A stretch of DNA of 39,533 bases. Source: a virus. Lineage: Duplodnaviria; Heunggongvirae; Uroviricota; Caudoviricetes. Positions 6,001 to 9,000 of this stretch are shown piece by piece. Location of the stretch: positions 1 to 39,533 of IMG/VR virus record IMGVR_UViG_2547132281_000008; one strand, given 5' to 3'. Position numbers: made by a program. Position 1 is the first letter of the stretch, and the number at the start of each line of letters is the position of its first letter.

Positions 6001-9000
6001 GAATCCGCATGCAGTAACGAAGTACCAACCGTTGATGATTTTCCACTGCATAACTTGTTACCTCGGTCTGTTACCGTTGAGGTAATGATTATGCGTATCT
6101 GGTTTGGTGTCAATAGATATGAGTTAAAAAAATTACCCGTTAGGTAATCAAACAGGCAATAAAAAAGCCGCCATAAGGCGGCTTACTTACTGAAAAACAT
6201 GGTTTTATTGTTTGTTTTTTTCGTTCTGGCTGATGACAAATTCAATGTAACTTTCGATCTTTGCCTTCTCTGTTTCAGGTAACAATGCGTAGCGCGAGCG
6301 GTCATAGTTGATGGTCGCAGGGTCGTGCGGGTGAATCAGTAATTCATAGCCGTGACGCCCGAATGCGGATGCAACATTCTCCAGGGTGGAAATGGAAACG
6401 CTGACCTCATTGTTTAACAGGCGGCTGATTGTCACCTGGGAGACGCCGGATGCGCGGTGAAGTTTTCCCTGTGTTGAAAGGTCGCGGCTTTCGCTCATCC
6501 AGCGTTCCAGGTTGTGAGCCGCCAGCTGACCTATATCGCTCGGGCCGACAGGCTGAAAACCTTCCTGAGAAAGCGAGCGATCGATATCAAGCCAGTTACG
6601 GGGTTTATTGGCGGCAGCTTCAATTTTTCGCGCAACCTGGTCGCCGATAACCTTCTTGCCAAGAGCCCAGCGGTTTACCAGATTTGCCTGAGTTCCAAGT
6701 TTTTCTGCCATCCGCGTCTGAACACCATTGAATTCACGGTCGATCAAGTCGTTGAGATTTTGCCTGCGGACGTCCTGGATACTTTTCATTTTCTGGAAAA
6801 TCGCCTCATATATGAATCAGTAGATGATTCAATTTAAAGCAATATTACCCAACAGGTAAATGCACCCCATAGGTAACTATCCTTGATTTTTGTTACCTTA
6901 TGGGTGAATATTTATTATCTGAAATAAATATCAGGCAATAGCTATGAGCGATAACGGACATTTCGATTTCAAAAAGCACTGGCTTGCACTTACTCCGGAT
7001 GAGCGTGAAGCCTTCGCACAGGAAGCCGGAACGACGAGTCACTATATCCAGACTCACTTAACAGGTAAGCGCAAAATGCCAGGTAAGGTATTGATGAATG
7101 GGCTTTTTAAAGCCTGTAAAACAAGACAATGGCTGCGCTCAAAAGCAGAACTGGCATACTTCTTCTACTCATGATATCCAGCCACAACCCTCTGTAGACC
7201 GCCATCCGGCGGTCTTTTCATATCTATTCGTACCTCAAAGGTAATAAAAAACCAAATGTGGTTGATCTTTTTTTTGTGTCAGCACAAAATAACCGTAATC
7301 CCAATACTAATAACAGGGCTTACCATGGAAATCATTACACGTATTGATGCCGCAAAGCGCGGACTTAAACGCTATTACACCGGAAAACAATGTAAGCACG
7401 GACATGACAGTGAACGCTGGGTTTACAACGGACACTGTGTTGAGTGCACCATGGAATCAAACCGTCGCATCAGGGCAGAGATTAAGCAGATCATGATTAA
7501 TTCCTCCCCACAACACTCAAGCTGATAGCGGAGATTAATCATGAGCAGACATGCAACAGATTGGGCTTGGGAGACAGATCCAGGCAGCTCATCATTAAAG
7601 CTCATACTGCTCTCGATGGCTGACAGAGCCGATGAATATAACCTCTGCTACCCCAGCATAGAACGCCTCGTTAAAGACACTTGCCTGAATAAAAAAACCG
7701 TGCAGGCCGGGCTTATATCGCTCATGAAAATGGGGCTTATTTCAGATACCGGAGAGAGAAAGGGAGCGACAAAAAGAGTGCGGGTTTTCTCTCTTAATAT
7801 AACCAAAAACGGGAACATTAAAGGCAACCGAGAGGGGGGCAATGAACCCGAAAACGGTAATGTTACCGAAAACGGGAATATACCCAAAAACGGGATGTTG
7901 AATGATCCCAAAAACGGGATGTTGAATGATCCCAAAAACGGGATCCAGAACCAGTCATATAACCAGTCATTTAACCAAGAGAGGGAGAGCAGGACAAAAA
8001 ACGGGGATTCTGTGCATCATGACCCCGGCGCAAACAACGCCGTGATGAATAACTTTGTTCCTCTTGGTGGGCCAGGGCAATTAGGCAAATTTGTCATGCA
8101 TGAACAATGGCAGCCATCAGATGACTTTCTTCGGAAAAGCTCATTGCAGGGGATCTACCTGGACAGTCTGCCAACGGCACAGGAACTTGCAGAGTTCAGA
8201 ATTTACTGGATGGCTGAGGGTAAGGCATACCATCAGGCACAGTGGGAGCAGAAGCTGGCAAGGCGGCTGCAGATTAGCAGACAGAAGCAATCAACATTAC
8301 CTGATAACAACGTTCCGCACTGGAACAGCCCTGAAGCATGGGAGGATTTCTTGTGAACAACGTTTTTACCGCGATACAAAACCGTGACGGAGAAGCCCTT
8401 TCTCGCATGTCAGGTTATGAGCATCAGTACACCAACAATGACAACGTGGTGAACATGTCAGCAGAGAGGCTTGTTGATGCCCTTTTCAAACAGCTGAAAC
8501 AACTGTTTCCGGCGGCAGTGGTAACCAACCTGAAGACGCCAGAGCAGGAAGTTGCTGCAAAACAGCAGTGGATTGCTGCGTTTGCCGAAGGGGGGATCCG
8601 AACCCGTGAACAGGTTTCTGCTGGTATGCGCCACGCCCGCGCCAGTGAGTCTCCGTTCTGGCCGTCGCCAGGGCAATTCATCAAGTGGTGTAAAGACAGC
8701 AAGATGGTTCTTGGCGTCACCATTGACGATGTGATGGCGGAGTTTCACCGGTACAGCAAGGAAAAAAGTTTATATCCTGGTGGTCCCGAAAGATTCCCGT
8801 GGCGGCATCCGGTTATGTACTGGGTCGTATGTGATACCCGCCGTGCAATGTATCAGCGCCAGCTTAGCGAGATTGAGGTTGAGAAACACGCGCGCAGGCT
8901 GCTCGATGATTGGGCGAAAAAGGTGGCTTCCGGACAGCAGATACCCGATCCGGTGATCAGCATACAGGCAAAGTCAGAGCCCATGAGTACACCTCCGGAC

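Follow-up and report, generated by a model that had tools for sequence, protein, structure and literature searches.

The stretch of DNA analysed here (the window) is a 39,533-nucleotide Caudoviricetes sequence, positions 1 to 39,533 of the IMG/VR record IMGVR_UViG_2547132281_000008. Inside its replication initiator gene lies an array of short direct repeats, which we regard as the probable replication origin of the phage. Segment 7541-9138 was 98.8% identical to phage phiV10 and 98.9% identical to phiv142-3; judged by sequence, the window represents an E. coli phage or prophage of the phiV10-like type, genus Uetakevirus. The initiator gene was found in 423 of 5,426 complete E. coli genomes. 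Its product matched the Pfam families HTH_36 in the N-domain (1.8e-10) and DnaT (PF17948) in the C-domain (1.1e-15), as well as PHROG 1032, 'replication initiation protein' (1.9e-107), and comparison of the C-domain with solved DnaT structures gave a match with an expectation value (E) of 7e-21. A divergent repressor-like gene and a cro-like gene are found 5' of the initiator gene, and a lambda-P-family helicase loader is encoded next to it on the 3' side; the genes are thus arranged as in a lambdoid early-right operon. The loader product was 31% identical to lambda P (E 2e-36), confirming the P-like gene that an earlier first-pass annotation of the window had named. The longest open reading frame (ORF) of the loader gene begins at 8338, and the GTG start annotated in phiV10 overlaps the initiator TGA stop in the tetranucleotide GTGA (8353-8356), which suggests that translation of the initiator and the loader may be coupled.

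Table 1. Predicted replication features of the window, with positions counted from its first nucleotide (aa, amino acids; PWM, position weight matrix; TRF, Tandem Repeats Finder).
Feature	Position	Strand	Remarks
Replication initiator gene, 271 aa	7541-8356	+	HTH_36 winged-helix domain aa 18-67; linker aa ~88-155; DnaT-like C-domain aa 184-252
Putative iteron 1, TAACCAAAAACGGGAA	7800-7815	+	Exact pattern match; PWM 16.4; isolated, 45 bp upstream of the cluster
Putative iteron 2, AACCCGAAAACGGTAA	7845-7860	+	Pattern match; PWM 16.7
Putative iteron 3, TTACCGAAAACGGGAA	7863-7878	+	PWM 15.8; arms TTACCG/CGGGAA, 5/6 complementary
Putative iteron 4, TACCCAAAAACGGGAT	7881-7896	+	Pattern match; PWM 19.1
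Putative iteron 5, ATCCCAAAAACGGGAT	7905-7920	+	PWM 20.0; perfect 5-bp inverted arms ATCCC/GGGAT around AAAAAC
Putative iteron 6, ATCCCAAAAACGGGAT	7929-7944	+	PWM 18.5; perfect dyad arms; last copy of the array
Three 12-nt units, (G/T)AACCAGTCAT-type	7948-7983	+	TRF period 12; immediately 3' of the last iteron; possible role as unwinding or second-site element
Purine-rich tract including ACAAAAAACGGGGA	7984-8007	+	In place of the A-rich tract of relatives; fails the PWM; varies in loci L007 and L008
Lambda-P-family helicase-loader gene	8353-9138	+	Pfam Phage_lambda_P PF06992, 1.5e-56; start as annotated in phiV10
DnaA box TTATCCACA, perfect	9644-9652	-	Short interval separating the DUF1064 gene (9256-9603) from the next ORF (9665)

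A search of the window for CCRAAAACGGKA returned six exact matches, all on the plus strand (7803, 7848, 7866, 7884, 7908 and 7932), and one further match with one mismatch at 3350 on the minus strand. The number expected by chance was 0.69, and seven matches were reached in none of 100 shuffles. In its extended form, (A/T)CC(C)RAAAACGGKA, the repeat has six strong copies over 7800-7944, with start-to-start distances of 45, 18, 18, 24 and 24 bp. Tandem Repeats Finder reported an 18-bp array (7846-7895), a 24-bp array (7883-7944; 2.6 copies, 100% identity) and a 12-bp array (7949-7977), and no other tandem repeat in the whole window. The 18/24-bp periodicity with an exact 24-bp tandem duplication described in the first-pass annotation was thus borne out, and the proposed count of about seven copies was sound for six of them. 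The seventh (7992-8007) is doubtful and degenerate: its sequence ACAAAAAACGGGGA (7994-8007) is without the CC half-site, fails the position weight matrix described below and is mutated in the close relatives L007 and L008. The array corresponds to aa 87-135, between the two domains of the initiator, and all six copies are in frame 0 of the gene. The repeats had been said to encode P(K/E)NG, which holds for one PENG and three PKNG copies but not for the remaining two, which encode TKNG and TENG.

Within the 45-bp gap of the array, CCGAGAGGGGGG (7830-7841) presents a CC-N6-GG frame lacking the A-rich centre, at a distance of 27 bp from iteron 1 upstream and 18 bp from iteron 2 downstream. This block, possibly a decayed iteron, is duplicated in the protein variant P0002. 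On the minus strand, terminator-like hairpins were seen at 7934-7915 and 7910-7891, in which the right arm of one iteron pairs with the left arm of the next and is followed by a T-run complementary to the A-tract. We rejected these as terminators, the pairing of arms from neighbouring iterons being probably a by-product of the dyad repeats. An Rfam scan of 6000-9800 matched no family, and the single-strand DNA fold of 7790-8010 was not unusual (z = -0.72), which excludes known RNA families and single-strand hairpins as explanations of the repeats.

To analyse the conservation of the array, we gathered 80 loci in which different species encode the same N-domain (40-87% identity); 77 of these were usable. 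These relatives span Vibrio, Pseudoalteromonas, Marinomonas, Acinetobacter, Providencia, Edwardsiella, Desulfovibrio-like and other genomes. A de novo search for a 12-mer family in the 360 bp after the N-domain found at least 4 copies, and up to 11, in 66 of the 77 loci, whereas control segments from the same loci (n = 376) had a maximum of 4 copies, reached by 7 segments. A position weight matrix (PWM) was built from 331 family sites; its site density was 9.65 per kb in the region after the N-domain versus 0.073 per kb elsewhere. The consensus of the 331 sites is A-G-T-C-C-C-A-A-A-A-A-C-G-G-G-A-C, with invariant CC and GG and with the arms GTCCC/GGGAC forming an inverted repeat around AAAAAC. 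The repeats were also present in relatives, among them the viable phages phiV10 and phiv142-3.

The reading frame of the sites was not maintained among the relatives. At least one spacing was not a multiple of 3 (17, 22 or 25 bp, for example) in 56 of the 66 loci, typical series being 17, 17, 22, 22 or 17, 17, 24, 24, and the PWM sites were distributed over the three frames as 205/69/53, with two or three frames used in 57 of 71 loci. The element ACCCAAAAACGGGA is read as TQKRD in Edwardsiella phage GF-2, as TQKRE in PPompW and as PKNG in the window. Where P-x-x-G units do keep the frame, their middle residues are KN, KI, IY, KF or EN, and the DNA stays CCC-(A/T-rich)6-GGG. Because spacings are not multiples of 3 and sites occur in all three frames, it is the DNA and not the peptide that is conserved; on this comparison, the conserved object is a dyad-symmetric DNA site. 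Conservation did not follow peptide and frame, as it would in a simple coding tandem repeat.

The window also has its spacing layout in common with the Acinetobacter prophages L120, L141, L144 and L145: an isolated copy, a gap of 45/46 bp, two spacings of 17-18 and two of 24. The N-domains of the window and of these prophages are only ~50% identical, and the shared layout hints at a fixed higher-order complex.

The DNA directly after the last iteron was also conserved. Three GAAYC units with 12/13-nt spacing were present at this place in 48 of the 77 loci and at least two in 58, compared with a rate of 0.03 per 460 bp elsewhere; loci noted for such units include L098, L104 and L116-L169, at about 2380-2500, and phiV10 has one extra 12-mer unit relative to the window. 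As the spacing alternates between 12 and 13, the GAAYC units are not all in one frame, and this suggests an element acting at the level of DNA. In the relatives, the GAAYC units are usually followed by an A-rich tract of the TAAAAATAAAAAA type. In L098, L104 and L141 no 30-mer of the locus is less stable than this tract (99.8-100th percentile), which is as unstable as that of lambda. The purine-rich tract that occupies this position in the window is probably not an iteron, and the 30-mer starting at 7953 is one of the two least stable of the initiator gene.

Repeat number was compared across E. coli genomes, phage records and IMG/VR, which together supplied 86 near-identical loci. In these, the segment with the array measured 186-282 bp and contained 5-9 core copies, the differences in length being whole 18- or 24-bp units; the form found in the window was the modal one (59/86 loci). 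One 311-aa protein variant had eight PKNG units, and the count reached 11 repeat copies in one protein variant. The repeat number therefore varies between isolates, as the first-pass annotation had anticipated. The 120 best database homologues of the initiator were all length variants, 87-99% identical to the query. The repeat array accounts for the differences in initiator gene length among isolates and for breaks in short-read assemblies at this place, since the repeats evidently break such assemblies. In the record of O157 typing phage 9 (L002; KP869107), a run of N (2401-2500) ends inside the iteron array, and the record of typing phage 10 ends at the same place. We rejected these two phages as examples of another N-domain fused to the same repeats: the matches start inside the array because of the assembly gap.

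We consider it likely, and hold with good confidence, that the six repeats at 7800-7944 are iterons bound by dimers of the initiator N-domain and that, together with the adjoining 12-mers and purine-rich tract at 7948-8007, they form the origin of bidirectional (theta) replication. Just as ori-lambda lies within O, this origin would lie within the initiator gene, in the part that encodes the linker. The first-pass annotation had predicted the origin at this place, and those parts of its reading that computation could test held up. The locus has several features of a lambdoid-type origin: an intragenic array between domains, at least four dyad direct repeats about two helical turns apart, a P-family loader downstream, and conservation at the DNA level. 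Binding, unwinding, loader recruitment and origin activity are inferred. In the proposed sequence of events, the initiator would be made by rightward early transcription, and its N-domains would then fill the iterons to give an O-some-like nucleoprotein complex. The flanking 12-mer region of low stability would open, and the DnaT-like C-domain would recruit the lambda-P-like loader carrying host DnaB.

Several observations weigh against this model. In the Pfam search, the N-domain of the window protein matched HTH_36 only, and not Phage_rep_O above threshold; the initiator not being a member of Phage_rep_O, its binding to the repeats is argued by analogy and from co-inheritance. A clear AT-rich tract was looked for beside the array and was not found, the 60 bp after the array being 55% AT and the window as a whole 52%. 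The two 30-mers of lowest stability in the initiator gene do flank the array (7793, 97th percentile; 7953, 94th percentile), but relatives and lambda reach 99.8-100, and the unwinding element is the weakest part of the model for this phage. Purifying selection on the iteron cores was considered among 45 distinct near-identical genes and was rejected as a line of evidence; the cores varied at 0.071 per site versus 0.088 gene-wide, in a test without power. Finally, the phiV10 record has no annotated origin feature, and literature searches for the origin of phiV10 or epsilon15, and for the iteron sequence itself, found nothing relevant.

The strongest alternative is that the repeats do bind the initiator but serve autoregulation, handcuffing copy control or titration, the real origin lying elsewhere in the phage. 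Iterons in plasmids also have control functions, and this explanation would fit both the weakness of the AT-rich or unwinding tract beside the window array and the perfect DnaA box lying 1.7 kb from it. We nevertheless find it improbable: no other repeat array or site cluster was present in the window, DnaA boxes were not enriched (4.15 expected, 2 found, neither of them close to the array), an A-rich tract of very low stability does adjoin the array in relatives, and in GF-2 the array takes the exact place of the lambda iterons beside the conserved ori right arm.

A role for the array as the binding site of the N-domain is also suggested by its inheritance. The same N-domain and array are found in front of DnaT-like, lambda-O-type, Phg_2220_C, DnaA_N or unclassified C-domains, and the next gene in relatives encodes a lambda-P homologue (10/25), a DnaB helicase, a DnaC/IstB-like ATPase or another protein. 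No such repeat array was found in SPN1S and TL-2011b, which have the same DnaT-like C-domain behind other N-domains. At the distant locus L148 the conserved DTGERKG wing motif is lost and a different repeat, CCCCCGCCGGAA, is present. This is the pattern expected of an origin-recognition cassette, in which a DNA-binding domain would travel with its own sites. It makes it very unlikely that the repeats are sites for another factor (a host protein, another phage protein or a defence system) or a recombination hotspot unrelated to the N-domain. Such an explanation could appeal to the fact that we infer N-domain binding, and to A-tracts, which could bend DNA intrinsically and attract nucleoid proteins. 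It is opposed by the strict inheritance of the array with the N-domain across Enterobacterales, Vibrio, Pseudoalteromonas, Marinomonas, Acinetobacter and others, by the absence of the array where the N-domain is replaced, and by the replacement repeat of L148. No more credible is a slippage-prone coding repeat forming a flexible (P/T)(K/E)NG linker between two domains without any DNA role: the six in-frame window copies with their Pro/Gly/Asn-rich, linker-typical peptide and the shifts in copy number by whole 18-/24-bp units, as replication slippage would give, suit it, but it is contradicted by the spacings, frames and unrelated peptides of the distant relatives described above, in which the conserved positions are CC, GG, the A-rich centre and the inverted arms.

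SPN1S (L014; 1030-1845), a Salmonella phage of the same genus, has an initiator with an unrelated N-domain, and both the repeat array and a downstream P-like gene are missing from it; the genus Uetakevirus is therefore mosaic in its replication modules, and the SPN1S origin must be of another type. L179 (NZ_CP148379.1) is an E. coli plasmid record, a circle of 8,461 bp in which the replication genes are limited to an initiator of this family, with 4 internal sites, and a short P-like gene. Its other genes are a repressor/cro pair, ydaT and Qin-type genes (rem, hokD). By analogy with lambda-dv, which it resembles, L179 may be a natural mini-replicon or an excised prophage fragment; as a hint of origin function it is circumstantial, the PLSDB gene table being incomplete and the assembly coming from a single cell.

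The module was encountered in other settings. Two 41,027-bp non-mobilizable E. coli 'plasmids' (NZ_CP079771.1 and NZ_CP079768.1) encode an initiator 98.8% identical to that of the window and are probably the phage genome itself, assembled as an episome. The records of two large lytic-type phages, BP9 (L003; PP488543; 138 kb, Vequintavirus; 1-4574) and PH444 (PP350014; 115 kb), contain a phiV10-type immunity and replication module, which in BP9 is located near the end of the record; these records look like chimeras in which a co-induced prophage was assembled together with the phage. To the left of the immunity region in the window, a 344-aa ORF on the minus strand (4859-5893) encodes a long, highly charged, Ala/Glu/Arg/Lys-rich helical repeat region; this ORF had no Pfam match.

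The relationship between the initiator and lambda O was analysed at the level of both domains. Sub-threshold Phage_rep_O matches were found for 5 of 34 family members (best 0.0064), alongside winged-helix matches to DnaD_N, RepC and Cdc6, and a comparison by hhalign of the N-domain family with lambda O gave a weak helix-turn-helix match (E 0.002, probability 13%). Lambda O and the window protein both match the mixed PHROGs 678 and 345. A distant kinship of the two proteins is possible on these profile matches. By its domain matches, the window protein is not a member of the lambda O family, having neither the N- nor the C-domain of that family, and the system is, on present sequence comparisons, best classed as an origin of lambdoid type served by an initiator from another family. 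A single-sequence AlphaFold2 model of the initiator was unusable (mean predicted local distance difference test score 36.8).

The location of an origin inside the initiator gene has been known in principle since lambda, phi80 and 82. The arrangement described here is ordinary and already familiar, was not previously annotated for the phiV10-like phage group, and leaves the general view of phage replication unchanged; family-wide site conservation, the spacing pattern and the GAAYC 12/13-mers are a modest addition to a known kind. The finding does predict a concrete origin position, at about 7.80-8.01 kb, for phiV10-type (Uetakevirus) phages, which are in use as E. coli O157 reporter and typing phages. 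It also provides an annotation rule for HTH_36-type initiators: CC-(A-rich)6-GG dyads should be sought directly after the N-domain, in any reading frame. Taken together, the results might point further, to a broader proposal that we advance tentatively and consider possible, though somewhat doubtful. The window would belong to a large unrecognised class of prophage origins, in Gammaproteobacteria and beyond, made of three fixed parts: iterons of the form GTCCC-AAAAAC-GGGAC (often spaced 45/46-17-17-24-24), three GAAYC units at 12/13 nt, and an A-rich tract. An HTH_36-type initiator gene would read through all three parts, and its N-domain and the origin would be one cassette moving among at least five kinds of helicase-recruiting C-domain. 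The phi80 initiator has a Phage_rep_O N-domain, and phi80 has the same iteron core; on this ground, HTH_36-type and Phage_rep_O initiators may represent one ancient lineage that retained a single code for DNA recognition. The GAAYC 12/13-mers may act as an unwinding or single-strand-binding element of a new kind.

Comparison with known replicons places the window closest to the lambdoid phages. In iteron plasmid origins of the Rep_3 type (RepA, RepE, pi), the initiator is a winged-helix protein whose binding sites are tandem direct repeats of ~20 bp adjoining an unwinding region. The iterons of these plasmids lie outside the rep gene, usually with DnaA boxes, whereas those of the window are intragenic; the window protein had no Rep_3 match, and the locus lacks the defining features of a Rep_3 plasmid replicon.

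The first-pass annotation had described the array as mirroring lambda, and the layouts do correspond. In both systems, the initiator gene carries a repeat array at its middle, flanked by the regions that encode a DNA-binding N-domain and a partner-binding C-domain; each iteron is a dyad around an A-rich centre, at a spacing of about 18-24 bp; a P-family loader gene follows immediately, overlapping the initiator stop; and iteron number varies among relatives. The label 'O-like' is accordingly apt for function and layout but not for protein family, since lambda O combines a Phage_rep_O N-domain with a lambda-O-type C-domain, and the window protein HTH_36 with a DnaT-like domain. The lambda record contains four iterons of the TCCCTCAAAACGAGGGA type inside O, spaced 20/24/23 and followed by a 40-mer that is 80% AT. 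In a published description (PMC7466680), the lambdoid origin consists of iterons and an AT-rich tract located centrally in O, and the number of iterons is 4 in lambda and 6 in Stx phages. The lambda half-sites, TCCCTC-N5-GAGGGA, differ from the TCCC-N6-GGGA of the window, where they are 3 bp closer, and the family PWM found no site in lambda. Lambda has four sites with the 80% AT tract and the ori right arm; the window has six sites and neither of the other two elements.

The sites of phi80 are more similar. Four gp15-binding sites, TTCCCGAAAACGGGAA and variants, are annotated inside gene 15 of the phi80 record at 20/21/21 bp, and gene 14 is the P analogue. The phi80 core TTCCCGAAAACGGGAA is nearly identical to TTACCGAAAACGGGAA and ATCCCAAAAACGGGAT of the window, being about one base apart, and two phi80 sites scored 19.5 and 14.8 with the family PWM. 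Their place within the initiator gene is also the same as in the window. The proteins differ: gp15 has a Phage_rep_O N-domain versus HTH_36 in the window, BLASTP of gp15 against the window protein detected no similarity, and profile comparison of the N-domain family with gp15 gave a weak helix-turn-helix match (E 1e-3, probability 21%).

The 'replication initiation O-like' gene of Edwardsiella phage GF-2 combines elements of both systems. Its N-domain belongs to the same family as that of the window (57% identity over the first 88 residues) and it carries the same kind of array, with TCCCAAAATTGGGA three times at 24 bp and two more copies, followed by GAAYC 12-mers. Unlike in the window, its C-domain is 62% identical to that of lambda O and the ori right arm is kept. 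The GF-2 array and 12-mers lie to the left of the ori right arm, at a distance of ~60 bp; this arm, TCGTCCGAGAATTCTGACGAATCCTC, is invariant in lambda, phi80 and GF-2. In this phage, therefore, the array stands in the place of the iterons and AT-rich tract of lambda.

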